From an uncultured Anaerolineales bacterium (GTDB lineage Bacteria > Chloroflexota > Anaerolineae > Epilineales > Epilineaceae), in the NCBI GenBank assembly GCA_964498575.1, contig CAZCJG010000001.1, positions 1 to 32,997 of the forward strand: a DNA stretch of 32,997 nucleotides, given 5' to 3'. Below are positions 1-24,182 of this stretch, one piece after another; within the stretch, counting starts at the first letter, position 1, and the number at the start of each line of letters is the position of its first letter. The notes below the pieces were generated by a model. It was given only the letters and a program-made list of their open reading frames with translations. It ran no database searches and was not told the origin of the DNA. Position numbers and translations under genes: made by a program.

Positions 1-505
1 GGACCTTGTCGGGATGCAACGCGCTGTAGCACAAGCTGAAGGTCCCGCCCTGGCAAATCCCCAGCAGGTTGATCGAAGGCTGGCCGCTCCGGGCGCGGAT
101 CACGTCGACGCAGCGGTCGATGTAGCCGTTGATGTAGTCGTCCAGCGTCAGCCAGCGATCACCACGGGTGGGGTAGCCCCAGTCGATCAGGTAGACGTCC
201 AGCCCCAGGCGCAATAGGTTGTGCACCAGCGAGCGGCCCTTCTCCAGGTCGACCATGTAGGGCCGGTTGACCAGGGCGTAGTTGATCAGCAGCGGCACCG
301 GCCGCGGCGTCTCGACTACCGGCGTGTAGCGGTACAGCGTCAGCTTGTCCTCGCGGTAGACCGCCTCGCGCGGCGAGAAGCCGACCTGGATGTCGTCGGC
401 GTCGATCCGCGACAGCGCCTCGATGCCCGCGACCGTGCGCCGGCTCATCTCGGCCAGCTCGCGCACGAAGGTCTCCGGGCTGATGGCAAGCACGGGGGAT
501 ATCAT
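1..505 (-). CDS. phaC: Class III poly(3-hydroxyalkanoate) synthase subunit PhaC, N-terminal ~168 aa only (3' end runs off the window)
   Basis: Absent from the ORF track because the frame stays open to the window edge. The minus-strand ATG at 505 reads MISPVLAISPETFVRELAEMSRRTVAGIEALSRIDADDIQVGFSPREAVYREDKLTLYRYTP..PLLINYALVNRPYMVDL..DVYLIDWGYP..LTLDDYINGYIDRCVD..INLLGICQGGTFSLCYSALHPDKV. This is collinear with Allochromatium/Synechocystis-type PhaC, including the lipase box G-x-C-x-G (GICQGG). There is an ATGA start/stop overlap with phaE. Confidence 0.93.
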   Translation of the reverse strand, partial: MISPVLAISPETFVRELAEMSRRTVAGIEALSRIDADDIQVGFSPREAVYREDKLTLYRYTPVVETPRPVPLLINYALVNRPYMVDLEKGRSLVHNLLRLGLDVYLIDWGYPTRGDRWLTLDDYINGYIDRCVDVIRARSGQPSINLLGICQGGTFSLCYSALHPDKV

Positions 506-1803
506 GCGGGACCTCCGGGCGTCTGTTCTCCGGGCGTCTGACGATCGCTTCGCCGGCGGCTGGGGCGCTTGGCGGCCTTGAGCGCCGCCATCTCGCCGCG
601 CAGCGCGCGCAGCTCGCCGCGCAGGCGGTAGATCTCGCGGAAGGCCTCGTCGAGCTCGCTGCGCGAGGCGATGTCGGTCGTCTTGAGGAAGGTTTCGACC
701 ACGGCGCGCTCGGCCTGGCGGTAGCGCATCGCGGCGTTGAGCATCCTGCCCTGGGCCGCGGCGTAGGGTTCCGAGCGGAAGGCTTCCTCCATCGAGGCGT
801 CGGTGACGGTCGTCCACAGCGTGGTGAGCTCGCGCAGCGACGAGATCGGCTTGCCGGCCTCGGCGCGCGCCTTGAGCGCCTCGAACACCGCGGCCGAGGC
901 ATCGGCCCAGGCCTCGCCGACGATCAACTGGTATTCCGCGACGGCGCGGCGGTAGTCGATCCAGGCGTCGAAGCCGCCCAGCAGCTCCTCCTCGAACTCG
1001 CGCGTCATGCCCAGGCTCGGGCTTTCGAGCAGCCGGCCGCCGGTGTGCTCCCAGGCGTCCCAGTAGAGGCGCGACAGCCCGGCGAAGGCCGAGCCGTCGC
1101 CGGAGATCGCCGAGGAGATGTGCCCCGGCGCCTGGCGCAGCGACTGCGCCCAGGGACCGACCAGGCGCCCCACGGTCTCCAGATACAGCCGCCACAGCTC
1201 GGCGGTGTCGCCGGCGATGGCGGCGTAAGCGGTGGGATCGACCGTCCAGCCACGCTTGACCTGCTCGCGGTAGCCGTCGATCGCCGCCTGCCAGTCCTGC
1301 CCGGCCGCGACCTGGGCCGAGAGCGTCTGCCAGGCCTCGGTCATCAAGCGCGTGTAGCGGAACACCAGGTCGTGCGTGGCCAGCAGGCCGGACGCGACGT
1401 CCTTGACCACCGGCTCGCTGCCTGCCGTCCACGCCCCCATCGCCTGCTCGGCGAGGCGGCGCCACTGCTCGGCGAGCAAGAGCATGGGATCGGTCGAAGC
1501 CGTCTGCCCGGCGGCACCGCGCCCGGCAGGTCCGGGACCCGGGTTGGGGAACGGCGTACCGGGCGGCGCGCCAGCCGGGGACGATCCAGCGGCTGAGGCG
1601 GGTCCCGACGCGGCCGCCATCCCGGCGCTCGCGGTCTGGGCGGTGCCGGCGGTAGCGGCTGCCTGCGCCATATCGGCCCACGCCTGCCACATGTTGCGGC
1701 CGGCTTCGCCCCACAGGTTGACCATCGACTCGGTCTGGGCCTGCCAGGGATTCACTGGGCTGTTGTTGTTCACTTGGCTGTTGTCGTCCATTGCCTCAGC
1801 CAC
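502..1803 (-). CDS. phaE: Class III PHA synthase subunit PhaE (with a long Ala/Gly/Pro-rich insert near the N-terminus)
   Basis: A 433-aa ORF sits immediately upstream of phaC and is translationally coupled to it (ATGA). The Trp-rich N-terminus (NPWQAQTESMVNLWGEAGRNMWQAWADM) and the C-terminal part (LGMTREFEEELL..WIDYRRAVAEYQ..EPYAAAQGRMLNAAMRYRQ..EIYRLRGELRALR) fit the PhaE family and the phaE-phaC gene order seen in cyanobacteria. The start is uncertain: GTG at 1803 or ATG at 1791. Confidence 0.85.
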   Translation of the reverse strand: MAEAMDDNSQVNNNSPVNPWQAQTESMVNLWGEAGRNMWQAWADMAQAAATAGTAQTASAGMAAASGPASAAGSSPAGAPPGTPFPNPGPGPAGRGAAGQTASTDPMLLLAEQWRRLAEQAMGAWTAGSEPVVKDVASGLLATHDLVFRYTRLMTEAWQTLSAQVAAGQDWQAAIDGYREQVKRGWTVDPTAYAAIAGDTAELWRLYLETVGRLVGPWAQSLRQAPGHISSAISGDGSAFAGLSRLYWDAWEHTGGRLLESPSLGMTREFEEELLGGFDAWIDYRRAVAEYQLIVGEAWADASAAVFEALKARAEAGKPISSLRELTTLWTTVTDASMEEAFRSEPYAAAQGRMLNAAMRYRQAERAVVETFLKTTDIASRSELDEAFREIYRLRGELRALRGEMAALKAAKRPSRRRSDRQTPGEQTPGGPA

Positions 1804-2357: not shown

Positions 2358-2816
2358 CTAGGCCTTGGCCCGCGTGCGGGTGCCGTTGGCCGGGGTCTCG
2401 GCCGCCGCCTGGACGACTTCGGTGGCCTGCTGCATGATATCGTTCATCTGCTCCTGGGCGACCTGGGCCTGCGCCTGCATCGCGCGGCCGGTCTCGCTGG
2501 CGAAGGCGCGCGTCGCCTCGGCCATCGAGCGGGTGAGCTGGGTCGCCAGGTCCGCGTTGGCCTTGAGCTGAGTCTGCCAGAGCTGGGCGCTCTCGATCAC
2601 GAGCTTGTGCTCGCGCCCGGCGATCTCGCCCGCGCGCCGGTTGGCCTCGGCCCACAGCTTGCCATTGTGCTCGCGCAGCGCGAAGGCGCTGTCGAGCTGG
2701 TGCTGGGTCGCCTCGACCACGAAGCCGTTCCAGGCCTGCAGCGCGTCCTGCCACTGCTTCAAACCGGTCCGGAAGCTCTCGTTCATCGTCTGGTACATCG
2801 GCTGGGTTTCGTTCAT
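2358..2816 (-). CDS. Phasin-like PHA granule-associated protein (putative)
   Basis: The ORF 2358..2849 is trimmed to ATG 2816 (MNETQPMYQ...), which has AAGGAG 7 nt upstream. The protein is amphipathic and all-helical, rich in Ala/Gln/Glu (LKQWQDALQAWNGFVVEATQHQLDSAF..LWQTQLKANADLATQLTRSMAEATRAF..QAQAQVAQEQMNDIMQQATEVVQAAAE). It heads the phaE-phaC cluster. The phasin call rests on composition and context. Confidence 0.7.
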   Translation of the reverse strand: MNETQPMYQTMNESFRTGLKQWQDALQAWNGFVVEATQHQLDSAFALREHNGKLWAEANRRAGEIAGREHKLVIESAQLWQTQLKANADLATQLTRSMAEATRAFASETGRAMQAQAQVAQEQMNDIMQQATEVVQAAAETPANGTRTRAKA

Positions 2817-2861
2817 CGTTGGTTCTCCTTGGTAGGGTTGATGGGCCAAGTGTAGCGAGCA

Positions 2862-2880
2862 GGAGTTACAGTGGAGTTAC
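2862..2880. promoter_or_regulatory. Two 8-bp direct repeats (GGAGTTAC) phased 11 bp apart, in the divergent phasin / vWA-gene control region
   Basis: aGGAGTTACagtGGAGTTACggg occupies 2862-2869 and 2873-2880. The second repeat ends 9 nt upstream of the GGAACC -35-like element at 2890. One-helical-turn phasing is typical of winged-helix (OmpR/SARP-type) activator sites. Confidence 0.3.
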
Positions 2881-2889
2881 GGGCGCCGC

Positions 2890-2916
2890 GGAACCCCCGC
2901 CCGCCGCCGGGTGTCT
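2890..2916 (+). promoter_or_regulatory. ECF-type promoter candidate upstream of the NHL/vWA gene (GGAACC-N17-GTCT)
   Basis: The site is GGAACC (2890-2895), cccgcccgccgccgggt (17 nt), GTCT (2913-2916). It has the same architecture and spacing as the site upstream of the ECF sigma gene (8827-8853, minus strand). Confidence 0.5.
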
Positions 2917-2927
2917 TTCCTGATAGC

Positions 2928-5900
2928 ATGGTCCCGCCACCTTCCCACCTGATCCCGCGCGGTGCGCGCGCACCCATGACGCGCGCCATCGCCTTGGGCG
3001 CGGCCGCCGCTCTCGGCGTCCTCGACCTGGTCCTCGCGCCGGGCGCGCCACACCCGCGCGCCGCCGGAGCCGCCGTGTGGTCCAGGCCAGCGCCGCCGGC
3101 AACCGCCCAGGGCCAGCCGGCCCGCGCCGCGCTCCCGGCCCGCGGCTACGCCGTCGTGGCGTCCTGGCCGCTGCCCCCACGCCCCTTGCCGCACACCCCC
3201 GACTTCGAGCCGCTGGATCTGGCGCTCCTGCCCGACGGGCGCCTGCTGGTCGCCGACGCCGCCAACAACGCGGTGCTCGCCTTCGATCCGGAGGGCCGGT
3301 TGGCCGGGAAATGGACCTTCGACGGCCAGCCCGGCACCCGTCCCTGTGCCGCTACGCCGATCGCTTTGGCCCTCGGCGCGGGCGAAGGGCCGGTCTATGT
3401 GCTGTGGGCGTTGCACGAGGCAGCCGCAGCGCCGGGGATCGGAATGCTGCACCAGCCGGCCCAGGCGCCGGGAGCCGGGGTGCTTGAATCGCGCACCTTG
3501 GACGGCCACAGCCTGGATCGGCGCTCGGTGGAAGCCAGCGATGTGGCGATCGACCCCGTGTCGGGCGACCTCGTCCTGCTGGACGCCGTGGGCGGCTGGT
3601 TGCGGCGTCTCGGGCCGGGCGACGCGGCGCCGCGGCGCTTCGCACCGGTCGGGCGTATGACCGGCCAGGCCGGCGCCCTGGCGGTGGGCCGCGCCGTCAT
3701 CGCGGTGCTCGCCGGCGGCGGCGCGGTCGACCTGGTCGCCCCGGACGGGACACCGGCCGGCCGGATCGCCCCCAGCCCTCACCGCGCCCGCGCTGTCGGC
3801 GTGGGCGACGACGGTCGCATCTGGCTGCTCGTGCAAGCCGATGTCCGTATCGCCCCGGACGATCGCCCGATCATCCTGCGCTACGGCGCCGATGGACGGC
3901 TCATGGATGCGCTCGGCACGGCCGCTCTCGGATCCGTGACGCTGCCCAACCTCGCCTGGCCCTTCACGCTGGATGTGCGGGAATCCGGGCTCGCCCTGGC
4001 CGCCGCGGACGCGGGCGGGGCGTTCGCGATCCACCGCTACGCGGATCTCGGCCGCGTCGGGCCGATCCTGCGCGGCGGGCGGGCCCGGTCGGGCGGCGGC
4101 GTCTCGCGCTGCGCACCCTTGCGCGTGGACGGCCCCTTGCGCCTGGCCGCCGCCCCGGACGGGAGCCTGGCGCTGCTCGACGGCCGCGAGGGACAGGTCC
4201 TGGCCCTCGACGAATCCGGCCCGGTGTTCAAGGCGCTCGCCCCGCCCGACGCGGCCGAGCTGGCGCTGGGGCCCGGCGGCGCGCGCTACCTCCTCGGCAC
4301 CGGCGGGGCGCTGCTGCGGCAGGACGCGGCCGGCGGCACGGTGTGGCGCGTGGACTGCGGCTGCCCCTGGGCCACGGGCCTGGTGGTGGCGGGCGAGCGG
4401 GTGCTCGTCGCCGAGCCCTGGCCGGCGCCGGGGCGGATCGCCGCCTTCGCGGCCGAGGATGGCCGGCCGCTCGGCACCCTGGAGCGGCGGCCGCCGGGCG
4501 GGCTATGGCCGATCGACCTGGCGCTGGGGACCGATGGCCGGCTCTTCACCGGCGACCGGCTGGCCGGGACCGTGGCGGCGTTCGCCCCGCCCTTCGGTCC
4601 GGGCTTCGTGGACGATGCGATGCGCTGGGCCACCGGCCCGCGCGGCGCGGCGCGCCGTCTGGACGCCGGCTGGCTGGCACCGGGCCTGCCCGGCCTGGCC
4701 CTCGTGCGCGAGGACGACCGGCTGGCGATCCTGGCCGGCGACGAGGGCATGCTCGCGGATCTCGTCCTGCCCGAAACCCAGGACGGATCCGCCGTCCACG
4801 CCGCCGACCTCGCCTGGGACCCCGGCGGACGCCTCTTCCTGGCCGATCCCGGGCGCAACGAGGTGCACCGTCTGGAACCGAGCGCGCGCGCCGGGCCTGC
4901 CCAATCGGGAAGCCCCCCGTCGCCGGAGTCGCCGGCCTGTCGGATCGCGGGGGAGCGGACGGTTCGACCCGGCACGGCCCGCATCGGCGAAGCGGTGGAG
5001 GTCCGGCTGCGGCTGGGGACCGTATGCCCGCCCGGCGGCGACGCGGCGGTGAACCTGGTGCTGGTGGTCGACCGTTCCGCGTCGATGCAGGGAGCGCCGC
5101 TCGACGCGGCCAAGCGGCTGGCGCGCGACTTCGTCGAAAGCCTGGGCGCGGATGCGCGGCTGGCCCTGGTCACCTTCGATCTGCAGACCACGGTCCCGGT
5201 CTACTGGACCGCCCAGCGCTCCCGCCTGATCGCAGCCCTGACTCCGATCGAAGCCAACGGCGGCACCAATCCGGCGCCCGCCCTCCGCCGTGCCGACGCC
5301 CTGCTGCACGAGATCGCGCTCACGGAGCCGGGGCGGGGCCGCGCGCTGCCGGTCATCCTCCTGCTCACGGATGGCGCCCGCAGCCAGGACACCGAGGATC
5401 CCCGCGGCCCCGCCCTGCTCGCCCGTGCCCGCGGCGTCATCCTCATGGCCGCCGGCCTGGGACCGCGGGCCGACATGCGCCTCCTGGCCGAGCTGGCCGG
5501 CGGCGCGGCGCTGGAAGTGCGCGCGGCGTCGGACTCGGAACCGCTGCGGCGCCGGCTGGACCAATTGACACGGCGGCCCCCGCCCGGCGATCTGGTGATC
5601 GACGAGCTGGCCGGCGCCGGATACGCCATCGCCGGCGATGGTGCCCAGCCTGCCGTGCTCGGCATCCCCGGCGGCCTGCGCTGGGGCCGGGTGCTGCTGC
5701 CGGCCGAAGGGCTGACCCTCACCTACACCATCCGCCCCCATGCGATCGGCGACCTGCCCGTCGGCGCCGCCGGCGCCGCCGCCTACGCCGACGGGCACGG
5801 TGTCCGGCGCCGCCTGCCGCTCGCGCCCGCCCCGCTCCGTGTGCTCCCACTGGTGCCCAGCCCGTCTCCAGCACCCGGCCAGTCCTCGACACCCAGCCCA

Positions 5901-6623
5901 TCTCCGCCGCCCGCCACCGCGACCCCGGCCGGACCCGCCGTCGGCACGCCGACGCCGGGAGGTCCACCGAGCCCGGTCCCCACCGCTTCCCCGACCGCCA
6001 CCGACCCAGCGGCGGCACGTCCCCTCCGCGCCTTCCTGCCGGCGATCGAGCGCTGCGGCGAGCGGCGGCCGACCGATCTGGTGCTGGTGCTCGACGCCTC
6101 GACCAGCATGCACGAGCGCTTCGGGCCGGGCACCAAGCTCGATGCCGTCGTGGCGGCGGTGGGTACGCTCTGGGGCGCGCTGTGGCTGGGCGGGGGCGAT
6201 CGGGCGGCGGTCGTCACCTTCAACCGCGAGGCGGTGGTGAGGCAAGGCCTGACCGGAGACCGCGCGGCATTGCAGGCGGCACTCGATGCGGTGCCGGTGG
6301 CGGCCGAGACCCGGATCGACCGGGGGATCGAGGCGGCCTTGCGCCTGGGCGCCGGCGCCGATCCGGGCCGGGCCGCCGTGCTCGTCCTCGTCACCGACGG
6401 CCGGCCCTACCCGGTCTCGCCCGATCAGGTGCTGGCCCAGGCGGAGACCGCCAAGGCGGCCGGCTTCCAGCTCTTCAGCGTCGGCATCGGCGCGGAGCTG
6501 GACCTGCGCACGCTGCGGGGCATCGCGTCCCGGCCCGGCGATGCGTACCAGGCGCTCGATCCCGCGGCGCTGCGGGCGGCGCTGGAGGCCATCGCCGAAG
6601 CGATCCGCTGCAGCGGGGCTTGA
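2928..6623 (+). CDS. Secreted NHL-repeat beta-propeller protein with two von Willebrand factor A (vWA) domains
   Basis: A 1250-aa ORF (track start GTG 2871). The likely start is ATG 2928, 11 nt after the GTCT element, or ATG 2976 (MTRAIALGAAAALGVLDLVLAPG, signal-peptide-like). NHL-like blades: LLPDGRLLVADAANNAVLAFDPEGRL, AAPDGSLALLDGREGQVLALDESG, WDPGGRLFLADPGRNEVHRLEP. Two vWA MIDAS motifs: LVLVVDRSASMQG and LVLVLDASTSMHE. A Pro/Ser/Thr-rich linker (PSPSPAPGQSSTPSPSPPPATATP...) separates the vWA domains. Confidence 0.88.
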   Translation: MVPPPSHLIPRGARAPMTRAIALGAAAALGVLDLVLAPGAPHPRAAGAAVWSRPAPPATAQGQPARAALPARGYAVVASWPLPPRPLPHTPDFEPLDLALLPDGRLLVADAANNAVLAFDPEGRLAGKWTFDGQPGTRPCAATPIALALGAGEGPVYVLWALHEAAAAPGIGMLHQPAQAPGAGVLESRTLDGHSLDRRSVEASDVAIDPVSGDLVLLDAVGGWLRRLGPGDAAPRRFAPVGRMTGQAGALAVGRAVIAVLAGGGAVDLVAPDGTPAGRIAPSPHRARAVGVGDDGRIWLLVQADVRIAPDDRPIILRYGADGRLMDALGTAALGSVTLPNLAWPFTLDVRESGLALAAADAGGAFAIHRYADLGRVGPILRGGRARSGGGVSRCAPLRVDGPLRLAAAPDGSLALLDGREGQVLALDESGPVFKALAPPDAAELALGPGGARYLLGTGGALLRQDAAGGTVWRVDCGCPWATGLVVAGERVLVAEPWPAPGRIAAFAAEDGRPLGTLERRPPGGLWPIDLALGTDGRLFTGDRLAGTVAAFAPPFGPGFVDDAMRWATGPRGAARRLDAGWLAPGLPGLALVREDDRLAILAGDEGMLADLVLPETQDGSAVHAADLAWDPGGRLFLADPGRNEVHRLEPSARAGPAQSGSPPSPESPACRIAGERTVRPGTARIGEAVEVRLRLGTVCPPGGDAAVNLVLVVDRSASMQGAPLDAAKRLARDFVESLGADARLALVTFDLQTTVPVYWTAQRSRLIAALTPIEANGGTNPAPALRRADALLHEIALTEPGRGRALPVILLLTDGARSQDTEDPRGPALLARARGVILMAAGLGPRADMRLLAELAGGAALEVRAASDSEPLRRRLDQLTRRPPPGDLVIDELAGAGYAIAGDGAQPAVLGIPGGLRWGRVLLPAEGLTLTYTIRPHAIGDLPVGAAGAAAYADGHGVRRRLPLAPAPLRVLPLVPSPSPAPGQSSTPSPSPPPATATPAGPAVGTPTPGGPPSPVPTASPTATDPAAARPLRAFLPAIERCGERRPTDLVLVLDASTSMHERFGPGTKLDAVVAAVGTLWGALWLGGGDRAAVVTFNREAVVRQGLTGDRAALQAALDAVPVAAETRIDRGIEAALRLGAGADPGRAAVLVLVTDGRPYPVSPDQVLAQAETAKAAGFQLFSVGIGAELDLRTLRGIASRPGDAYQALDPAALRAALEAIAEAIRCSGA

Positions 6624-6684
6624 GGGCGCCGCGGGACCGAGTGCCCGGCGCGTGTCGCCCGGTCGACGGCCTTGCGCCGCCGGG

Positions 6685-8172
6685 TCAAGGCAAGCGGAAG
6701 TCGACGCGCGTCTCCGGCCCGCCTGCGCCGATCGTGACCGGCTCGGCGGCGGAGGGATCGGCCTGGGCGGGCCACCACAGCTCGGGCGGCCTGAACCAGG
6801 CGCGGGAGGCGCCGAGTCGATAGCGGCCCGGTGCCAGGTGCAGGGCATAGTTGCCCTCGTCGTCCGCCAGCACGGCCCCGGCAGGCGTGTCGCCGCCCTC
6901 CAGGGCTTCGGCGATCACCAGCGCCCCCGCGACCGGCCGATCCGCCGCGCCCTGCACCTGGCCCAGTACCCGTTCCGCCGGCCTGGCCTCGAGTCGGAAG
7001 TCCGCGCCCGGGGTCCAGCGGCCGGTCAACACCTCAATGGCGACGGCGGCGCGCGGGTCCGGGCTCGCGCCCGCGCCGGGGCCGCGCGACCAGGCGAGCG
7101 GATGGTCGGGCGATTCGGCGCTGAGAATCCAGACGCCCTCACCCAGCTCCAGCGCGAAGCCGCCGTCGGGCGCGCTCAGGCGCTCGACGAAGTCCCCATG
7201 CGCCGCGCCCGGCCGCCGCGCGCGGATCGGGATCTCCGCCCGCCCGGCGCCGTCCGGCCCGAGCACCTGACCCGCGATGCCTTGCGCCGGCCCGCCACCA
7301 CCGCCTGGGCCGGCCGTCGGCGTCGGCATGCCGCCCGGCGGTGTCGGCGTGTCGACCGGGGGCGGTGCCGCCGTGTCGTCCGGCGGCGGGTCATCCGTCA
7401 CCCGCTTCGGCGTGTCGTCCGGCGGTGGCGCCGTGATCCGAGGCGGGGTCTCGGATGGCAGGGGAATCACGATGAACACGGGCACGCTTGTCGCGCCGCG
7501 GGTCGGAGGGAAGGGTGAGGACGCCGGGAGCGGTTCCAGCCGCGCCCTCGCCGGCCCGCCGCGCGAATCGCCGCCCACTTCCGGCTCCGGGCCGACCAGC
7601 CGGGCGATCCGGGCCCCTGTGACCTCCCGCGCAGGGACCCCGGCGCGGCCGTTCGCGCCATCCACGCCCGGCCGTCGATCCAGCATGCCGGGCGAACCCT
7701 GTCTCGTCACGACGGTAGGCGCCGCCGCCGGGATGGCCGCGACGGGCACGGTGTCGATGGCCGCCCCGCGGTCGAGGTTCGACCAGGCGAGGAGGGCGAG
7801 GAGGAATAACAGGAGGATCAGGCCGACCCGCCCGCGGCGCTGGTCGCGCCCATCGGACTGTCCCGGACCGGCCGCCGATAGCTCCGACTGGGGCGCATCC
7901 CCGATCTCGTGCTGGGTCGATGCCGAGCGCGTCGAGGACGGCGTGGGATCCTGGGCGATGCGGGCCAGGACCGGCGCCAGAGAGGGCAGGGGGGCGGCGC
8001 GGACCACGGTGTCGTCGCGGACCGCGCCGGCCAGCGCCTGCCAGTCGCGCAGCTCGGCTGTGCAGTCCGGACAAGCGGCGAGGTTGCGCGCGACACGCTG
8101 GCGCTCGGCATCGCTCAACTGGTCGGCGGTGTATGCGATCAGGTGCTCGCGGACGTGGTCATACGCGGGCAT
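6685..8172 (-). CDS. Anti-sigma factor (zf-HC2 / ZAS type), single TM, extracytoplasmic Pro-rich linker plus two carboxypeptidase-regulatory-like beta-sandwich domains
   Basis: The ORF 6685..8268 is trimmed to ATG 8172 (MPAYDHVREHL...), with GGGGAG 6 nt upstream. It overlaps the sigma gene stop by 14 nt. HC2 motif: H-x24-C-P-D-C (REHLIAY...NLAACPDCTAEL). TM segment: VGLILLLFLLALLAW. C-terminal segments GIAGQVLGPDG..GGFALELGEGVWILSAE and VLGQVQGA..VLADDEGNYALHLAPGRYRLGA look like CarboxypepD_reg folds. Confidence 0.85.
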   Translation of the reverse strand: MPAYDHVREHLIAYTADQLSDAERQRVARNLAACPDCTAELRDWQALAGAVRDDTVVRAAPLPSLAPVLARIAQDPTPSSTRSASTQHEIGDAPQSELSAAGPGQSDGRDQRRGRVGLILLLFLLALLAWSNLDRGAAIDTVPVAAIPAAAPTVVTRQGSPGMLDRRPGVDGANGRAGVPAREVTGARIARLVGPEPEVGGDSRGGPARARLEPLPASSPFPPTRGATSVPVFIVIPLPSETPPRITAPPPDDTPKRVTDDPPPDDTAAPPPVDTPTPPGGMPTPTAGPGGGGGPAQGIAGQVLGPDGAGRAEIPIRARRPGAAHGDFVERLSAPDGGFALELGEGVWILSAESPDHPLAWSRGPGAGASPDPRAAVAIEVLTGRWTPGADFRLEARPAERVLGQVQGAADRPVAGALVIAEALEGGDTPAGAVLADDEGNYALHLAPGRYRLGASRAWFRPPELWWPAQADPSAAEPVTIGAGGPETRVDFRLP

Positions 8173-8809
8173 CGGCATCTCCCCTTGAATCGTCCGGAGT
8201 ATCGAGCAGGTCGCGCAGGGCGCGGCGCGCGCGGTGGAGGCGGCTCTTGACGGTGCCGGGCGCGACATCGAGGACCTCGGCCGCTTCCGCCACCGCCAGG
8301 CCGTGGAAGAAGACGAGCTCGAGGGTCAGCCGCTGATCCTCCGGCAAGGTCGCGAGCGCCTCCCGCAGGTCCAGGCGCTCATCCAGCCGGCGTTCGCGGG
8401 CGACCTTGCGCGCCTCGACCGCCAGGCCCGTGTCCAGATCGACCGTCGCTACCCGCGCCCGGCGGCGCGCGTTGATCGCGCGGTTGCGGGCGATCACCAG
8501 CAGCCACGTGCGCACGCCGCTCTCGCCCCGGAAGCCCGCCGCGGCGCGCCAGGCGGCCAGCATCACGTCCTGCAGCACCTCCTCGGCCAGCGGCCGATCG
8601 CGCAGGCGGCCGACCAGGAAGGCCAGGAGCCCGGGGCCATGCCGGGCATACAGGCGCTCGAGCGCGGCGGTCTCGCCGCGGGCCATCGCCCGCACCAGGG
8701 CACGGTCGCCGTCATCGACCTCGTCCGTCGCGGCGGCAGGTCGCCTGGCCGGCTCAGCCCAAGCGGCGCTCATCCGCATCCCTACCCACTCCAGCAGCTC
8801 CTCGGCCAT
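8159..8809 (-). CDS. ECF-family RNA polymerase sigma-70 factor
   Basis: Region 2: LYARHGPGLLAFLVGRL..AEEVLQDVMLAAWRAAAGFRGESGVRTWLLVIARNRAINARR. Region 4: LPEDQRLTLELVFFHGLAVAEAAEVLDVAPGTVKSRLHRARRAL. The track ORF starts at 8884. ATG 8809 is preferred because the GGAACC-N17-GTCT element lies just upstream; ATG 8779 is also possible. Confidence 0.9.
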   Translation of the reverse strand: MAEELLEWVGMRMSAAWAEPARRPAAATDEVDDGDRALVRAMARGETAALERLYARHGPGLLAFLVGRLRDRPLAEEVLQDVMLAAWRAAAGFRGESGVRTWLLVIARNRAINARRRARVATVDLDTGLAVEARKVARERRLDERLDLREALATLPEDQRLTLELVFFHGLAVAEAAEVLDVAPGTVKSRLHRARRALRDLLDTPDDSRGDADARV

Positions 8810-8826
8810 GGCATCCGAAGAGCAAT

Positions 8827-8853
8827 AGACACGCTTTGGCGGGGCCGGGTTCC
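8827..8853 (-). promoter_or_regulatory. ECF-type (probably autoregulatory) promoter candidate upstream of the sigma gene
   Basis: The minus strand reads aaatGGAACC-cggccccgccaaagcgt(17 nt)-GTCT-attgctcttcggatgcc-ATG(8809). The -35 and -10 elements and the spacing are identical to the site at 2890-2916. Confidence 0.5.
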
Positions 8854-8907
8854 ATTTCGGGCGAGATGCAACCCGGCCCGGCACCCAGCGTGTCTCCTGC
8901 TTGCGAC

Positions 8908-8934
8908 GGAATCGAACTCATCTGCAGCCTGTCG
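8908..8934 (+). promoter_or_regulatory. Degenerate ECF-type promoter candidate upstream of the giant membrane-anchored protein gene (GGAATC-N17-GTCG)
   Basis: The site is GGAATC (8908-8913), gaactcatctgcagcct (17 nt), GTCG (8931-8934). Spacing matches the two exact sites, with one mismatch in each element. It would give a leader of about 120 nt containing direct repeats. Confidence 0.35.
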
Positions 8935-8974
8935 ATTGGACCCCGTTCATCTGCAACCTCGCACGAACGAGATC

Positions 8975-9004
8975 ATGCACAACGATGCACAACGATGCAC
9001 AACC
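8975..9004 (+). repeat. Three tandem 10-bp repeats ATGCACAACG in the 5' region of the giant gene
   Basis: gatcATGCACAACGATGCACAACGATGCACAACCcttg. This AT-balanced repeat stands out in high-GC DNA. It lies 59 nt upstream of ATG 9063. A second direct repeat, TCATCTGCARCCT, occurs at 8918-8930 and 8947-8959. Confidence 0.8.
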
Positions 9005-9062
9005 CTTGCGCGACCATTACCGCGCCTTGCGCGACGGTCCGCCGCGACCCGAGGAGTTTGCC

Positions 9063-12000
9063 ATGTCTATCCCCAAGCCACCAATCGCCCGCGCCCACCC
9101 GTTGGGGCGCTCCTCCTTCGCCGACCCGCCGGGCCGCGGCTTCGTCCTGGGACTGCTTTGTCTCGGCCTGGGCTTCGGCCTGGTCCTGGGCTGGGTGTTC
9201 GGGCGCGCCCCGGGCGCGGCGGCGAGCTCGGCCGGGGGCGGCACGGCCCCATCCGTGGTCGACCAGGGCGCCGTCGGCGGCGACGCGGCCGGGAGCGAGA
9301 GCTGGCTGCCGGTCCTGAACTTCGAGGGCCGCCAGGACATCTGCCTCAGCTCGATCCAGGCGCAAAACATCGGGACCGACTTTGCCAAACCGATCCTGAT
9401 CACCTTGGGCGAGGGACCTCAGTGCGGGCCGGCGGCATCGAACGTCCGGGGTGTCGAGTGCGGCGGGCTGCTGCGCCCCGGCGACGCCTGGATCTTCGGG
9501 ATGGCCCAAATCCCGACCGGCAGCTTCGGCGGCGTGATCTACAGCTTCAACCTGCGCACCCTGTCCGAGCTGGGCCTGAACCCCGGCTTCGACGACGTGG
9601 CGGCCGACTTCCTGTGCCAGCGCCTGGCCAGCGATCTCAAGGCCGGCCCGGATGCCTTCCGGCGCTTCGCCATCGCCTACCGTGAAGGTGGCGTCTGGGC
9701 GGGCGTGCCGCTGGACCGCGCGAGAGGCACCCGCCTCGGCGTCACGACGCTCCGCTACTGTCCCGGCGACCGCCACCTCGGCCTCCTGGTCGCCAGCGGC
9801 TACGCGGCCCTGCCCCCGCCTCGCGGCTACGCGCCCGGAACCGGCGTGCGTTTCGACTACGCGATCGGGCCGGTGCACCGCAACGACGACGGCGTCAACA
9901 CCAAGGTCTATGTCCAAGGCATGGGCACGAGCTGCACCAGCTTCAGCCTTTACCTTCAAGACACAGGCGCCTGCGGCGCGCCGAGGCTCTGCGGCGGGTG
10001 GTCCGTGGGGCCGGGGCAGAGTCTGGTCATCGAGCCTTCGGCTTGCCAGTCCAACGCCAAAACGGGTGTGCTGTGGGCAACGGGCAGCTACGAGCCCATG
10101 GCGATCGTGGCCGAGACCGTCGGCAACGACGGCCGGTCGAGCTATGCGGCGATCCCGGCGGCCACCGGCGGATATCTCGAGCCGGTCGTCGACGCCCAGG
10201 GGCCGACCCTCTTCGCGCCCCTGCTCTTCCTCGACAGCGCCGAGGCCGATTCGGAGCTGCAAGTCTTCGTCCAGAACCTCTCGATCGCCGCGCCGGCGCG
10301 TGCGCGAATCACGCTGCTGGACGCCGCCGGATCCCCGCTCGCCGCCGAGGATATGCCGATCTGCGCCCAGGGTCAGGTTGTCTTCCGCCGCAGCTTCGCG
10401 GGCGGGCCGGCGCGGACGGTCCCGGCCGTCGGGAGCATCCGGGTGGAGAGCCTGCCGGTGGCGCCGAGCGGCGCGACGCGGATCGGCGCGGTGGCCGAGA
10501 TTGTCCAGACCGACCGGGCGCTGGGCGAGCTCAGCCAGACCCACGCGCTCACGCTCCTGCCCGAGTCGCAGGTGAGTGCCTGGCCGCCGAGCGGCGGCTC
10601 CGACGGTGCCGCCGTCCTGGCATTCCCGCTCTGGAACGATCCCTGGAGCACCACCTTGACCAGCGACCTGATCCTCTCCAATGCCGTCGCAGCGCCGGGC
10701 CGTACCGACTACGTGGTGCTGGCCTTCGACCAGAACGCCCTGGTCGGCCTGCAATGCGGGTCGTTGGGCCCCGCCGAGACGGACTACCTTGACCTCAAGC
10801 CGGCCATCCTGCCCGTGTCGCGCGGCTTCGTGGGCGCGGGGATCGTCAGCGCCACCGCCTGGACGCATCGGGACGGGGCTGGCGCGCAAGCGAGAGCGGT
10901 GGTGGGGTTGGCCGGCCTGAACCTCATCCGAAGGGACAGCCCACTGGGCGAGGACGTTCCTGGGGACGAGCTGGCGGTAGTGACCGCCCGAGCGCTGCCG
11001 CGGGGCGTCCTGTCGGGGAGATCCCTGCCGGCCGCAGCGGGTGGGCGGGCCGCGGCGATCGCGCGGACTCCGGCGATCGCGCGGACTCCGGCGAGCGGGC
11101 GGACTCCGGCGAGCGGGCGGACTCCGGCGAGCGGGCGGACCGCGCGGGCCGCGAAAGCTCCGGCCGGCCTGGGTGCGCTCTGCCCGGGCGGGGTCTTGCC
11201 GCCGGCGCCACCGCCCGTGCCGCTGCCGGTGCCCCGAGGCTCGGACGTGGCCGAGCTGCATCTGCCGGTGGTGAACATTCAGGGACAGGACATGGTCTGC
11301 AACAGCCAGCTCGAGGTCGCCAACCCGGGCACCGAGCCGAGCCAGGCCATCCTCGTCGCCTGGGACGAATTCGGCTTCGCCCCGCCCAACTGCCGGGGTC
11401 CACTCGAGATTGAATGCTCGGGGCTGATCGCCCCCGGCGCCGCCTGGTCGATCCCGATCTACATGGACTTAGCGTCGGCGACGTTGTACAGCCTCAGCGG
11501 CCGCACCCTGGCCGAGCTGGGCATCGATCCCGGCTCGACCCAAACCGCGGGCGACCGCGTGTGCGACGCCCTCCGGAGCACCGCCATCGGCGACTGCGAC
11601 GTGCAGCGCCTCTTCGAGCACGCCTTCCGCAACGGCGGCAGCTTCGCCGGCATTCCCCTGGCCCGCGCCTACGGCGCGCCGCTGACCGCGCGGCTCAAGC
11701 GAATGTGTCCGAGCTTGGTCGTTCCCGGCGTCGAGGAGCAGGACGATTACTCGGCCATCCCGCACCGCGACACGATCCTGGCCCAGGGCGGCAGCGACCC
11801 GGTCGACGGGACCTACGCCTACGCCATCCCCGAGGCCTTCGGCGATCGCGACGGCGTCTGGAGCGTCATCTACACCCAGAACGTCGGCAGCGCGACGACC
11901 GGCGCTGCCCTGGGCTTCCGGGCGCACGGGTCGGAGGTGGTAAGCAACTGCACGTTGACCTGGCTGGCACCCGGCGAGATCTGGCCCTTCGACGTGTCGG

Positions 12001-12491
12001 ACTGTGTCGGCCCCGATTGGATCGGCAGCATCGTCGTGACCAGCCGACAGCCGCTCGCGCTGATCGTGGACGACATGCATGTCGATCGCTTCGCCACGCA
12101 TGGCGCCTTCGCCGGCCGGCTCGCCTTCGACGTCAACGGCGACGGGCGGGTCGACGGCGCCGATCTCGCCCTGATCGATGCCGCCAGCGGCGCGAAGCCG
12201 GGCGACCCGCGCTGGAATCCGCGGCTGGACCTCAACTTCGACGGGGTCATCGACGCCGCCGACCGCGACATGCTCGCGCGCTACCTGGGCCTCCCCGCCC
12301 AGCCCACCCCGACACCGCCCGCCGGGTCGAGTGTGACGCCGCCCATCGGGTCGACCCCGACGCCGTCAGTCCGGCCGAGCGCAACGCGTACCGCCACGCC
12401 GAGCGTGACTCCGAGCCCTACCGCCAAGGTCCCGGCGATCTACCTCCCGCTGTGCGCGTCGAACACCAGGCTGGGAGAGGGTGAGCGGTGA
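9063..12491 (+). CDS. Giant membrane-anchored surface protein: N-terminal TM, duplicated ~150-aa Cys-containing module, several beta-sandwich-like modules, dockerin-like Ca-binding repeats, Pro/Thr-rich tail
   Basis: The ORF 8901..12491 is trimmed to ATG 9063 (GAGGAG 6 nt upstream; MSIPKPPIARAHPLG). TM segment: FVLGLLCLGLGFGLVLGWVF. The duplicated module spans 9303-9764 and 11256-11711. Dockerin/EF-hand-like pair: FDVNGDGRVDGADLALI and LDLNFDGVIDAADRDMLARYLG (12126-12290). The PT-rich tail ends ...AKVPAIYLPLCASNTRLGEGER. I recognise no characterised family for the core. Confidence 0.85.
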   Translation: MSIPKPPIARAHPLGRSSFADPPGRGFVLGLLCLGLGFGLVLGWVFGRAPGAAASSAGGGTAPSVVDQGAVGGDAAGSESWLPVLNFEGRQDICLSSIQAQNIGTDFAKPILITLGEGPQCGPAASNVRGVECGGLLRPGDAWIFGMAQIPTGSFGGVIYSFNLRTLSELGLNPGFDDVAADFLCQRLASDLKAGPDAFRRFAIAYREGGVWAGVPLDRARGTRLGVTTLRYCPGDRHLGLLVASGYAALPPPRGYAPGTGVRFDYAIGPVHRNDDGVNTKVYVQGMGTSCTSFSLYLQDTGACGAPRLCGGWSVGPGQSLVIEPSACQSNAKTGVLWATGSYEPMAIVAETVGNDGRSSYAAIPAATGGYLEPVVDAQGPTLFAPLLFLDSAEADSELQVFVQNLSIAAPARARITLLDAAGSPLAAEDMPICAQGQVVFRRSFAGGPARTVPAVGSIRVESLPVAPSGATRIGAVAEIVQTDRALGELSQTHALTLLPESQVSAWPPSGGSDGAAVLAFPLWNDPWSTTLTSDLILSNAVAAPGRTDYVVLAFDQNALVGLQCGSLGPAETDYLDLKPAILPVSRGFVGAGIVSATAWTHRDGAGAQARAVVGLAGLNLIRRDSPLGEDVPGDELAVVTARALPRGVLSGRSLPAAAGGRAAAIARTPAIARTPASGRTPASGRTPASGRTARAAKAPAGLGALCPGGVLPPAPPPVPLPVPRGSDVAELHLPVVNIQGQDMVCNSQLEVANPGTEPSQAILVAWDEFGFAPPNCRGPLEIECSGLIAPGAAWSIPIYMDLASATLYSLSGRTLAELGIDPGSTQTAGDRVCDALRSTAIGDCDVQRLFEHAFRNGGSFAGIPLARAYGAPLTARLKRMCPSLVVPGVEEQDDYSAIPHRDTILAQGGSDPVDGTYAYAIPEAFGDRDGVWSVIYTQNVGSATTGAALGFRAHGSEVVSNCTLTWLAPGEIWPFDVSDCVGPDWIGSIVVTSRQPLALIVDDMHVDRFATHGAFAGRLAFDVNGDGRVDGADLALIDAASGAKPGDPRWNPRLDLNFDGVIDAADRDMLARYLGLPAQPTPTPPAGSSVTPPIGSTPTPSVRPSATRTATPSVTPSPTAKVPAIYLPLCASNTRLGEGER
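11055..11144 (+). repeat. Five in-frame 18-bp tandem repeats inside the giant gene (encode AIARTP AIARTP ASGRTP ASGRTP ASGRTA)
   Basis: gcgatcgcgcggactccg occurs twice, gcgagcgggcggactccg twice, then gcgagcgggcggaccgcg. The array lies in the linker between the two halves of the protein. Confidence 0.9.
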
Positions 12492-15889: not shown

Positions 15890-16165
15890 CTATTCCTGTT
15901 CCCACACCAAGCCCATTCTCGGCGGGCGCTGAGGTGGTAAGCCTGGTGACGCGGCCCTGGGGGGCACGGCCGGCGGTCCGAGGCAACCATATGTCAAGCC
16001 GGTCAAGCAGGGTCACACCAACCATTGAACAATGCCGGCCATCACAATCCAGGGTTCAGGACGTGCCAGCCCGGCCTGTGGTTACGCGACATTGCGATCG
16101 TGGCGTGGTATTCAGAGGAAAAGGAGGGCGCCTGAGTCACCGGGCGCGACAGGATCGACGCGGGG

Positions 16166-16222: not shown

Positions 16223-17077
16223 CTAGCGGGCCATGCCGCCGTAGCCGGTTTCGGCGATCTTGGCCGTCGGCATCAGTACCGGCCCCAGTGACTCCAGTGT
16301 CGCCGGCCAGTCCGGCCCCGGCGTCGGCGCGCGGAGCGGCACGGCCGTCGCCATCGCGCGCAGGTCCACGGTCTGGTTGGCCGCCAGCGATGCCCAGGCG
16401 CTGAGACCCTGGGCGCCGAGCGCGTCGATGATGTGGTAGGCCTGGTTCGGGGGCACCGCGACGGTGATCAAGCTGCTCGGCACCGTCCGGTCACCCCCGT
16501 CTTCGCGATACTCCCCGGTCTCCAGGTCCGGCCTGGCCGTAGCCGAGCTGACCGGCTGGCCCCCGGCGGAGACCCGCACCACCCACAGGCGCGGCTCGAT
16601 CAGCGTGGTGAAGGGCTGGCGGGTCTCGCGATCCTGCCCGTAGCCGTACAGGTTGATCACATGCCCCGGCCGGAGCTGACCGCCGACCGTGCGGTCGACG
16701 CCCGCCGCGAAGGTCACCACCTCCAGACCGAAGTCCTCGACGAAGCGCACCTCGTCGACCGGCTTGGCGTTGACGCCGGTCAAGAGCGCGCCGGGCCGGA
16801 TCTGGTCGGTCGACATCAGGCCGACGACCGACTCGATCGGGTAGGCGCCGCGGTCGTAAGCCGCGCCGGCTTCCATCGGCTCGCCCGCCTTGATCATCGC
16901 CTGGGTGATGATCGTGTACGGTTCGATCTGGCTGGCGGCGACAGCCACCGGCACGCGCAGGACGACCGGCGTCGGCTGCCAAAAGTTGCTGAGGACCCAT
17001 ACCAGGCCCCCGCCAAGCATGACGAGGGCCGCGATCAGGATCACAGGGCGGAAGTTCACAGTTGCACGTCCTTTCAT
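16223..17077 (-). CDS. CpaB/RcpC-like (SAF-domain) Flp-pilus-assembly-type protein, orphan
   Basis: The ORF 16223..17281 is trimmed to ATG 17077 (MKGRATVNFRPVILIAALVMLGGGLVWVL, an N-terminal TM). GTG 17059 is an alternative start. The SAF-like segment reads VPVAVAASQIEPYTIITQAMIKAGE, followed by a beta-rich region (FGLEVVTFAAGVDRTVGGQLRPGHVINLYGY..LWVVRVS..LITVAVPPNQAYHIIDA) as in CpaB. No other tad/cpa genes are present in the window. Confidence 0.65.
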   Translation of the reverse strand: MKGRATVNFRPVILIAALVMLGGGLVWVLSNFWQPTPVVLRVPVAVAASQIEPYTIITQAMIKAGEPMEAGAAYDRGAYPIESVVGLMSTDQIRPGALLTGVNAKPVDEVRFVEDFGLEVVTFAAGVDRTVGGQLRPGHVINLYGYGQDRETRQPFTTLIEPRLWVVRVSAGGQPVSSATARPDLETGEYREDGGDRTVPSSLITVAVPPNQAYHIIDALGAQGLSAWASLAANQTVDLRAMATAVPLRAPTPGPDWPATLESLGPVLMPTAKIAETGYGGMAR

Positions 17078-17300
17078 CTCATCAGGGTTCAAGGTTTGCC
17101 CGCGTTCGGCGCCCGCCACCGATCGGCCGCGCGGCGCCGCATGAGGCCCTACAACGATCCGTTCAACGATCCATTCATGGATGATCACGAATGATTCCCC
17201 CACCATGATCTGAACCCTGAGGGCAACTGTGATGGTTATATGATTGTCAAGCCGCTGTCCCCTTAGCACATCCCGTGCCACCGCGGCCGGGCCGCCCGCG

Positions 17301-19844: not shown

Positions 19845-20999
19845 ATGTCCACCAGCCCCCACCCCCCTCCCCTGACCGTCCTCTTCGTCGACCACGCCCC
19901 AGCGCTCGGCGGCGCCGAGCACAGCTTGTTGGGGCTCCTTAGCGCCTTGGACCGCGGGCGGGTGCGCCCGGTGCTGGCGGCCGTGCCTGGTCCACTGGCG
20001 GAGGCGGCGCGAGCGTCGGGGGTGACGGTTCACACCCTGCCGCTGCGCCAGCTCAAGGGCCATGCCACGGCGATCCTCCGCCTGGCGCGCGGCGTGCTGG
20101 CGCTGGCGGCGCTGATCCGCCGCGAGCAAGTAGACATCGTCCACGCCAACGTGCTGCGCGCGGCGGTCTACGCGGCACCGGCGGCGCGGCTGACAGGGCG
20201 GCCGCTGGTCTGGCATGTGCGCGACATCCTGGCGTCGGACCGGACGACGCGGGCGCTGTGCGGGCAGGCGGCGGCGGTGATCGCGATCTCCGAGGCGGTG
20301 CGGCGGGCGCTGCCCTGCGCAGGGCGAGCGTGCGTGATCTACAACCCTGTCGCGGTCCTACCAGCCCAGGCACGTACCCGGGCCGAGCTCGGGCTGCCGG
20401 AGGACGGGCTGCTCGTCGCCTCGGTGGGGCGGATGCGGGAGTGGAAAGGGCACGACGCCTTCCTCGAAGCGGCGGCGCGGGTGCGGCATCCCCAAGCGGG
20501 TTTTGTGGTGATTGGCGGACGGCTGTTCGGCGAGGATCGGGACGATTTGGACCTGGCCGAGCGGCTCGAAGCGCGGGCGGCGGTGCTGGGCCTATCCGAC
20601 CGGATGACCTTCACCGGCCATCGCGGCGACCTGGCGGACATCTGGCCGCACCTGGCGGTGGTCGCGCACACCGCCGAGGCCGAGCCTTTCGGCCGGGTGG
20701 TCGCCGAGGCTCAGCTCGCCGGCCTGCCGGTCGTCGCCTTTCGCGACGGCGGCGTACCGGAGATCGTCGCCGGCGGCGAGACCGGCCTGCTGGTGCCCGC
20801 GGGCGATGTCGGGGCGCTGGCTGGGGCGGTCGACCGTCTGCTGGATGACGCGGAATTGCGATCGCGCATGGGCGCGGCGGGACGGGCGCGGGCGGCGGAA
20901 CGGTTCGACCCGGCGGAGCATGCGCGGGCGGTGGTGGGGGTGTACGACGGCGTGGTTCGATCCCAACTCGCCGCGACGGGATCTGACCGCGTCCGTTGA
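19845..20999 (+). CDS. GT4-family (GT-B fold) glycosyltransferase
   Basis: N-terminus: VLFVDHAPALGGAEHSLLGLL. C-terminal E-x7-E region: VVAHTAEAEPFGRVVAEAQLAGLPVVAFRDGGVPEIVAGGETGLLVP. Confidence 0.88.
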   Translation: MSTSPHPPPLTVLFVDHAPALGGAEHSLLGLLSALDRGRVRPVLAAVPGPLAEAARASGVTVHTLPLRQLKGHATAILRLARGVLALAALIRREQVDIVHANVLRAAVYAAPAARLTGRPLVWHVRDILASDRTTRALCGQAAAVIAISEAVRRALPCAGRACVIYNPVAVLPAQARTRAELGLPEDGLLVASVGRMREWKGHDAFLEAAARVRHPQAGFVVIGGRLFGEDRDDLDLAERLEARAAVLGLSDRMTFTGHRGDLADIWPHLAVVAHTAEAEPFGRVVAEAQLAGLPVVAFRDGGVPEIVAGGETGLLVPAGDVGALAGAVDRLLDDAELRSRMGAAGRARAAERFDPAEHARAVVGVYDGVVRSQLAATGSDRVR

Positions 21000-24178: not shown

Positions 24179-24182
24179 ACCG

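Follow-up and report, generated by a model that had tools for sequence, protein, structure and literature searches.

We analysed a stretch of 32,997 bases (the window; GC 72%) from an uncultured Anaerolineales bacterium of the Chloroflexota, in which the genes for a sigma factor of the extracytoplasmic function (ECF) type and its anti-sigma factor lie between those for two very large proteins, one with NHL and VWA domains (the vWA protein) and one bearing a dockerin (the giant protein). The sigma factor and its class I anti-sigma factor are likely to form an autoregulated module that drives the two neighbouring secreted-protein genes, judging from a common promoter motif before all three transcription units and from the recurrence of both motif and gene order in related lineages. 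An autoregulated pair, with promoters of one type before both flanking genes, had been proposed in an earlier reading of the same letters (the original prediction), and the comparative evidence supports it. The four genes, whose domain assignments in that reading are confirmed by Pfam, are as follows:

2928-6623, + strand: NHL/VWA/VWA gene, encoding a secreted protein of 1231 amino acids (Pfam NHL and two VWA domains)
6685-8172, - strand: class I anti-sigma gene, 495 amino acids (Pfam zf-HC2 and CarboxypepD_reg; NCBIfam)
8159-8809, - strand: ECF (group 4) sigma gene, 216 amino acids (Pfam Sigma70_r2, 55 bits, and Sigma70_r4_2, 60 bits)
9063-12491, + strand: giant gene, encoding a membrane-anchored or secreted protein of 1142 amino acids (GAGGAG Shine-Dalgarno sequence before the ATG at 9063)

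The coordinates first given for the sigma and anti-sigma genes stand, but the start of the vWA gene moves from 2871 to 2928, and that of the giant gene from 8901 to the ATG at 9063, which is the most likely start from the sequence around it.

Promoter sites and gene order

The promoter motif of the sigma family was defined from 44 Chloroflexota loci encoding sigma homologs (44-65% identity to the window sigma), which were searched only for GGAA[CT]-N15-19-GTC 5′ of each sigma gene. In 24 aligned sites the -10 element always reads GTGTC and usually GTGTCTA, the spacing is fixed at N15, the base before GGAAC is T in 18 of the 24, and the sixth -35 base is C or T. Because the sites agree beyond the search pattern, the autoregulatory promoter of the family, as read from this alignment, is T-GGAACY-N15-GTGTCT-A; the informative -10 is GTGTCT and not the GTCK originally proposed. 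A position weight matrix (PWM) was trained on 20 non-redundant autoregulatory sites from these relatives, with the window left out. In 33 of the 44 relatives it returns a correctly oriented match that scores 15 or more and lies no further than about 170 nt from the sigma start; elsewhere it gives only 3 matches scoring 16 or more in 722,685 bp searched on both strands (about 2e-6 per position).

In the window the motif GGAACC-N17-GTCT occurs exactly twice, at the two places first noted (2890-2916 on the + strand and 8827-8853 on the - strand), where 0.04 occurrences are expected; none of 100 dinucleotide-preserving shuffles contained two or more. The looser pattern GGAAYC-N17-GTCK adds a third site at 8908-8934 (+), with an expectation of 0.25 and no shuffle of the 100 reaching three matches. 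The matrix also gives exactly three sites scoring 10 or more, all of them 5′ intergenic and directed at the three transcription units; shuffled windows contain on average 0.01 matches with a score of at least 18 and 0.32 with one of at least 14. Its third site is not the one found by the looser pattern:

8826-8854, - strand: predicted autoregulatory promoter of the sigma/anti-sigma operon, TGGAACC-N15-GTGTCTA (PWM 27.3, the top match in the window)
2889-2917, + strand: predicted ECF-type promoter of the vWA gene, CGGAACC-N15-GTGTCTT (PWM 19.4, second-best in the window)
8867-8896, + strand: candidate promoter of the giant gene, TGCAACC-N16-GTGTCTC (PWM 16.0, the third and last match at 10 or more)
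8908-8934, + strand: third element of the original prediction, GGAATC-N17-GTCG (PWM 7.6)

The claim that one and the same element precedes all three units thus holds for the sigma and vWA genes but not for the giant gene, where the element first chosen is unconserved and the conserved one lies 40 nt further upstream, with GCAACC as its -35 and a spacer one base longer. This candidate and the sigma promoter stand back-to-back, with 14 bp between their -35 elements. No sigma-70-type promoter is detectable across positions 2600-9200.

The original prediction had suggested synteny as a check, and the cluster of four genes (NHL/VWA/VWA, anti-sigma, sigma and dockerin-bearing giant) is indeed present in three further lineages:

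L001-L004: identity to the window 74% for sigma, 55% for the giant protein and 61% for the vWA protein
L006/L067: 78% for sigma, 51% for the giant protein and 59% for the vWA protein (a C-terminal fragment, as the contig end cuts the gene)
L076/L077: 64% for sigma, 38% for the giant protein and 37% over 1178 amino acids for the vWA protein, with one extra VWA gene inserted

Where the outer flanks can be seen, they differ: beyond the giant gene this applies to L001 and L067, and beyond the vWA gene to L001 only. The window has a polyhydroxyalkanoate (PHA) synthase subunit and unknown genes in these places; SdpI-like and folate-biosynthesis genes stand there in L001, and the latter recur in L067. 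Similarity of the sigma factor above 60% is no guarantee of the cluster, as seen in locus L075, where a sigma 62% identical to that of the window has other neighbours and no motif.

The sequences, their statistics, the conservation of the sites and the synteny can be observed directly. The sigma-gene promoter element is present in all cluster orthologs; in each of the three other lineages both it and the promoter of the giant gene have kept their places, back-to-back as in the window, and the vWA promoter is kept in both lineages for which the upstream region is at hand, while the spacers of all these sites have diverged. For the vWA gene, the ortholog sites read CGGAACT-N15-GTGTCT in L001 (score 20.0) and TGGAACC-N15-GTGTCT in L076 (26.1) within DNA that is otherwise unalignable. 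For the giant gene, position and orientation are kept with scores of 16.3-16.8 in L001, L006 and L067, and L076/L077 carry a perfect TGGAACC-N16-GTGTCT scoring 23.4-24.1; this consensus form at the same N16 spacing validates the weaker TGCAACC form of the other three lineages. Apart from a few surviving blocks, the divergent intergenic region has been rewritten between lineages; the blocks are both GTGTC -10 elements, both -35 elements, the short stretch between the latter and a CGACGG block. The -35 facing the giant gene is [G/C]CAACC or GGAACC across lineages, and that on the sigma side is GGAACC.

In L001 there is one extra match (16041-16069, - strand; TGGAACC-N15-TGGGTCT, score 18.7), located within a 130-residue open reading frame (ORF) just 5′ of the vWA ortholog, which may be a second promoter or a chance occurrence.

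The sigma/anti-sigma pair and the proposed circuit

The window sigma is a small protein with only regions sigma-2 and sigma-4, which is the pattern of ECF group 4, and matches the TIGR02937 sigma70-ECF model with 95.7 against a cutoff of 42.9. None of the family-specific NCBIfam models reaches its cutoff, the best being PRK12515 with 120 bits against 236. We found 2458 homologs, and all those with a taxon name are from Chloroflexota (Anaerolineae, Aggregatilineales, Ardenticatenaceae and Thermoflexus); among species representatives, identity to the window sigma does not go beyond about 60%. The main text of the 2021 ECF reclassification makes no mention of Chloroflexi or of carboxypeptidase-regulatory anti-sigma factors.

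As is expected of ECF factors, a class I anti-sigma factor is co-encoded and the promoter before the pair has an AAC-type -35 and a GTC-type -10 that are kept in the orthologs. The anti-sigma gene starts at ATG 8172 behind the Shine-Dalgarno sequence AAGGGGAG and overlaps the end of the sigma gene by 14 nt, stop codon included. Its product consists of an N-terminal zf-HC2-like domain, one transmembrane helix (residues 116-134), a proline-rich linker and a C-terminal CarboxypepD_reg domain. Only one such domain is detectable by Pfam in the window protein, where the original prediction had two; the L076 ortholog does have two stretches. The zf-HC2 match of the window protein is below the cutoff (20.5 vs 22.2 bits), as is that to NF052375 (41.9 vs 100 bits), but these matches are reproducible, the orthologs scoring 28.1 bits (L001) and 23.8 bits (L076) for zf-HC2. 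The zinc-binding anti-sigma (ZAS) ligand set, C ... H-x3-C-x2-C, is complete in L001 and L006 (C4, H30-x3-C34-x2-C37), but the window protein has Y4 and N30-x3-C34-x2-C37. The motif after which zf-HC2, a domain ascribed to this protein originally, is named has thus lost two of its four ligands here, and with Y4 and N30 zinc binding is probably lost as well. The protein keeps the fold family, and the zinc site is probably lost in this lineage.

We placed the transcription start sites by the numbering of Mycobacterium tuberculosis sigma-L promoters, in which CGTGTC spans -14 to -9 (bioRxiv 10.1101/381020), and so predict starts near 2924 (+), 8819 (-) and 8903 (+). For the vWA gene this would leave a leader of only about 4 nt to ATG 2928; as no Shine-Dalgarno sequence stands before the gene, this would give an almost leaderless mRNA. 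L001 has the same 12 nt between GTC and ATG. The vWA ortholog in L076 has a leader led by AGGAG, and the leaderless layout would therefore be lineage-specific. The predicted leader of the sigma gene is about 10 nt, and the predicted 5′ untranslated region (UTR) of the giant gene about 160 nt. An Rfam scan of the window gave no matches, and there is therefore no known riboswitch or leader in the latter. A perfect tandem repeat of 2.9 copies of ATGCACAACG lies in this 5′UTR (8975-9003, + strand), as part of an insertion of about 77 nt not present in L001 or L006. The CGACGG block (window 8897-8908, + strand) lies about 8 nt past the -10 of the giant gene, or at about +2 of the predicted transcript, and is invariant in all four lineages (at the equivalent places in L001, L006 and L076), whereas the adjoining bases vary.

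The circuit that we propose would work as follows. The sigma factor and its single-pass membrane anti-sigma factor would be co-translated, and the cytoplasmic domain of the latter would hold the sigma factor in the resting state. The C-terminal CarboxypepD_reg beta-sandwich would sense a signal outside the membrane, most likely one related to the envelope or surface, and this signal would free the sigma factor, presumably via regulated proteolysis of the anti-sigma factor, the route taken by other class I systems. Once free, the sigma factor would direct RNA polymerase to T-GGAACY-N15/16-GTGTCT promoters, of which three lie within 6 kb: its own (8826-8854, -), giving autoregulation with positive feedback, the divergent one (8867-8896, +), giving the dockerin-bearing giant protein, and the one directly before the NHL/VWA/VWA gene (2889-2917, +), giving the nearly leaderless mRNA. 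The output would be two large secreted or anchored proteins, which are probably binding proteins. Autoregulation is usual among ECF sigma factors, whose genes often lie beside those of their targets (PMC7826278). The start sites, the signal and the release mechanism in this scheme are deduced, the first from promoter numbering.

Several points weigh against the proposal. Dependence of the sites on this sigma factor is something we infer from motif and synteny alone, with a genome view of 33 kb only, and the four cluster lineages are related, so that their conserved sites do not represent independent events. In three of the four lineages the giant-gene promoter is off-consensus (-35 GCAAC, spacer one base longer), and a site with its score of 16 is expected by chance about 0.1-0.3 times per window. 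Many Chloroflexota homologs of the sigma factor carry the same motif, and a paralogous sigma of the same genome could use these promoters. There is also a paralogous cluster (L068 9802-20088, and L069) in which a giant-like protein of 1471 amino acids is followed by two VWA proteins of 713 and 1180 amino acids, with no sigma/anti-sigma pair and no promoter motif; L068 comes from a run adjacent to that of L001, and L069, its twin, from the same run as L004. Finally, with two of its four ZAS ligands lost, the regulation of the window anti-sigma may differ from that of canonical zinc-binding anti-sigma factors.

One alternative is that these are real ECF-type promoters read mainly by a paralogous sigma of the same family encoded elsewhere, the adjacency being incidental or a matter of shared control. 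We regard this as improbable. The motif T-GGAACY-N15-GTGTCT does stand 5′ of sigma homologs merely 50-65% identical in many Chloroflexota, and one metagenome sample holds both L005, whose sigma is 65% identical and has the motif, and the ECF system of L070, so that promoter specificity is unlikely to be unique to the window sigma. Against this, the four genes stay linked in four lineages in spite of changes in the visible outer flanks, the sigma and giant-gene promoters are back-to-back in all of them, and most relatives have no extra motif matches within 10 kb either side, which together make the concentration of sites specific to the four-gene cluster. It is highly improbable that only the autoregulatory promoter functions and that the vWA and giant-gene matches are chance occurrences in GC-rich intergenic DNA. 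With a GC content of 72%, shuffles do give 0.32 matches at 14 or more, and the giant-gene site scores only 16 with a non-consensus -35; but the vWA site scores 19.4, where 0.01 matches are expected at 18 or more, and just one non-autoregulatory match of 19 or more occurs in 1.4 Mb of strand-positions of the relatives. Moreover, both sites keep position, orientation and core bases in orthologous loci despite diverged spacers and surroundings, and both score 24-26 in L076.

That the giant gene is driven by GGAATC-N17-GTCG at 8908-8934, and not by TGCAACC-N16-GTGTCTC at 8867-8896, is most improbable. The former fits the loose GGAAYC-N17-GTCK pattern upstream of the gene in the correct orientation, but its matrix score is low because the -10 reads CTGTCG, with CTGT in place of the GTGT that is invariant in the family. 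It lies in a stretch that is absent from or unalignable with L001 and L006 and that consists in part of the insertion of about 77 nt specific to the window; with the matrix, no equivalent appears in L001, L006, L067, L076 or L077, all five of which have the 8867-8896 element. On this comparison the 8908-8934 element is probably not functional. That the GC-rich elements act as hairpin terminators, or bind a regulator other than a sigma factor, is scarcely credible. A simple scan does label 2898-2913 and 8835-8849 as terminator-like, but the labelled stems are the GC-rich promoter spacers, which are not conserved although the flanking hexamers are; no gene ends there on those strands, the neighbouring genes diverge from them, and the scan gave 3 such sites compared to 1.0 expected by chance.

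The two large secreted proteins

The vWA protein begins with a signal peptide (an N-terminal hydrophobic segment), followed by an NHL/beta-propeller region, a VWA domain, a linker and a second VWA domain. An alternative start at ATG 2976 corresponds to the database gene call of 1215 amino acids. The VWA domains score 109 bits, and the metal ion-dependent adhesion site (MIDAS) motif DxSxS is intact in both (DRSAS and DASTS) and conserved in L001; the fold with an intact MIDAS is what is expected of VWA domains in adhesion or ligand binding. A metagenome scan for further vWA orthologs gave distant NHL matches only, and the word-indexed search overlooked the L001 ortholog.

The giant protein carries a transmembrane segment at its N-terminus, and an unannotated module occurs in it twice (residues 78-360 and 730-1010; 32% identity, E = 6e-34). 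After the modules come a repetitive (A/G)RTPAS linker, a type I dockerin (Dockerin_1, 39.6 bits vs a cutoff of 22.9) and a Pro/Thr-rich tail. An 18-nt tandem repeat of 4.9 copies (window 11053-11140) encodes an (A/G)RTPAS linker between the halves of the protein. Pfam has no match in the giant protein beyond the dockerin, none of the window ORFs scanned has a cohesin domain, the partner expected of a type I dockerin in cellulosome-type proteins, and the L001 ortholog has no Pfam dockerin. In an AlphaFold2 (AF2) model (mean predicted local distance difference test score, pLDDT, 57.7; modules about 70-85) the protein forms beta-sandwich arrays with helical inserts. Foldseek comparison of this model to the PDB gave only generic multi-sandwich proteins at template modelling (TM) scores of 0.1 or less, such as macroglobulin (MG) domains of complement and alpha-2-macroglobulin and sandwiches of glycoside hydrolase family 2 (GH2).

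The family to which the giant protein belongs is unannotated but not rare: a full HMMER search found the module (about 570 residues, no Pfam model) in at least 185 clusters (50% identity) at E <= 1e-30. An initial impression that the family is very rare, from 7 word-indexed matches, was rejected as an artefact of the index. The module-bearing proteins P0121-P0285 range from 300 to 4800 amino acids.

It is possible, if rather unlikely, that the two outputs form an undescribed sigma-controlled cell-surface assembly of filamentous Chloroflexota, with the external domain of the anti-sigma factor monitoring assembly as a feedback sensor. Two associations recur. The link between the giant family and VWA proteins is seen again without a sigma factor in L068, and in L070 (10001-15752) a giant-like protein (34% identity) lies directly 5′ of another, unrelated ECF sigma (33%) and a CarboxypepD_reg anti-sigma factor; the association of the giant family with CarboxypepD_reg anti-sigma modules therefore recurs. 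If the idea were correct, these recurrences would make the unannotated module family, with its 185 or more clusters, a new class of ECF-associated surface proteins.

Relation to known sigma factor systems

The circuit type is textbook for ECF sigma factors and the architecture is standard, although the comparative support is unusually clean, and the locus leaves the understanding of ECF signalling unchanged. In canonical modules such as RpoE-RseA of Escherichia coli and SigW-RsiW of Bacillus subtilis, the sigma factor is likewise confined to regions 2 and 4, and the anti-sigma gene lies downstream and overlaps it; the anti-sigma protein bears its anti-sigma domain at the N-terminus and crosses the membrane by one helix. 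In these modules, too, the autoregulatory promoter contains AAC in its -35 and GTC in its -10, and target genes adjoin. The window system differs in that its sigma reaches no NCBIfam family cutoff, its -10 is the longer GTGTCT, its sensor is a proline-rich linker and CarboxypepD_reg beta-sandwich outside the cytoplasm, and the targets predicted for it, in place of chaperones, proteases or detoxification genes, are two secreted proteins each longer than 1100 amino acids. Release by regulated proteolysis, as in the canonical modules, is an assumption here.

A further system for comparison is SigL-RslA of M. tuberculosis, whose regulon includes secreted and membrane proteins and whose anti-sigma factor, RslA, is bound to the membrane and of the zf-HC2 type. 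The SigL promoter consensus, TGAACC (-35) and CGTGTC (-10) (PMC2703886), is nearly identical to the (T)GGAACC ... cGTGTC of the window. This -10 suggested membership of the SigL family, a possibility we rejected. SigL is among the three best solved-structure matches of the window sigma (E = 3.7e-17) but no better than RpoE-like structures; the PRK09645 model gives 111 bits against a cutoff of 202; and SigL residues His54 and Asp60, which were shown to set the -12/-11 specificity (bioRxiv 10.1101/381020), align with Ala and Gly in the window sigma, which has an RpoE-type FRGES loop. For these reasons the likeness of the -10 elements is not evidence of family, and it is likely convergent or generic.

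A third comparison is with the wider Chloroflexota sigma family (L005, L007-L047, L049 and L050), whose members come from metagenome-assembled genomes of Anaerolineae, Aggregatilineales, Ardenticatenaceae and Thermoflexus. Their sigma factors are 44-61% identical to that of the window by tblastn (L005, 65% by BLASTP), and they share the T-GGAACY-N15-GTGTCT promoter and an anti-sigma N-terminus of the form W.E.IPFYVAGTL ... HL..C..C. By contrast, the external parts of their anti-sigma factors vary widely (SH3-like repeats, WD40, multi-transmembrane and peptidase-like), the neighbouring genes are others, and most loci lack extra promoter copies within 10 kb. Only a small clade has the three-promoter, four-gene arrangement. 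In one sub-branch (L012, L017, L027, L028 and L035) the site 5′ of sigma reads GGGAACC-N15-GTGACTA, GTGAC replacing GTGTC. Locus L010 (Aggregatilineales) has motif copies at 9543-9571 (-) and 8573-8601 (-), with scores of 19.4 and 16.8, which are directed away from sigma and face small unannotated ORFs; they may mark another local regulon.

To our knowledge there is almost no experimental knowledge of transcription control in Anaerolineae-type Chloroflexota. The locus offers a sigma factor and promoter triplet fit for heterologous testing, with a consensus (T-GGAACY-N15/16-GTGTCT) and three natural targets, and places two large uncharacterised secreted proteins in a regulatory context, an unannotated domain family being present in one. 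It is also a clean case of phylogenetic footprinting correcting a motif guess.

Several other long ORFs of the window have no Pfam match. Those that could be assigned include a homolog of PHA synthase class III subunit E, a SAF/RcpC-like protein (Flp pilus CpaB-type) and two GT4 glycosyltransferases; these four genes lie at 502-1803 (-), 16223-17281 (-), 19845-20999 (+) and 24117-25367 (+).

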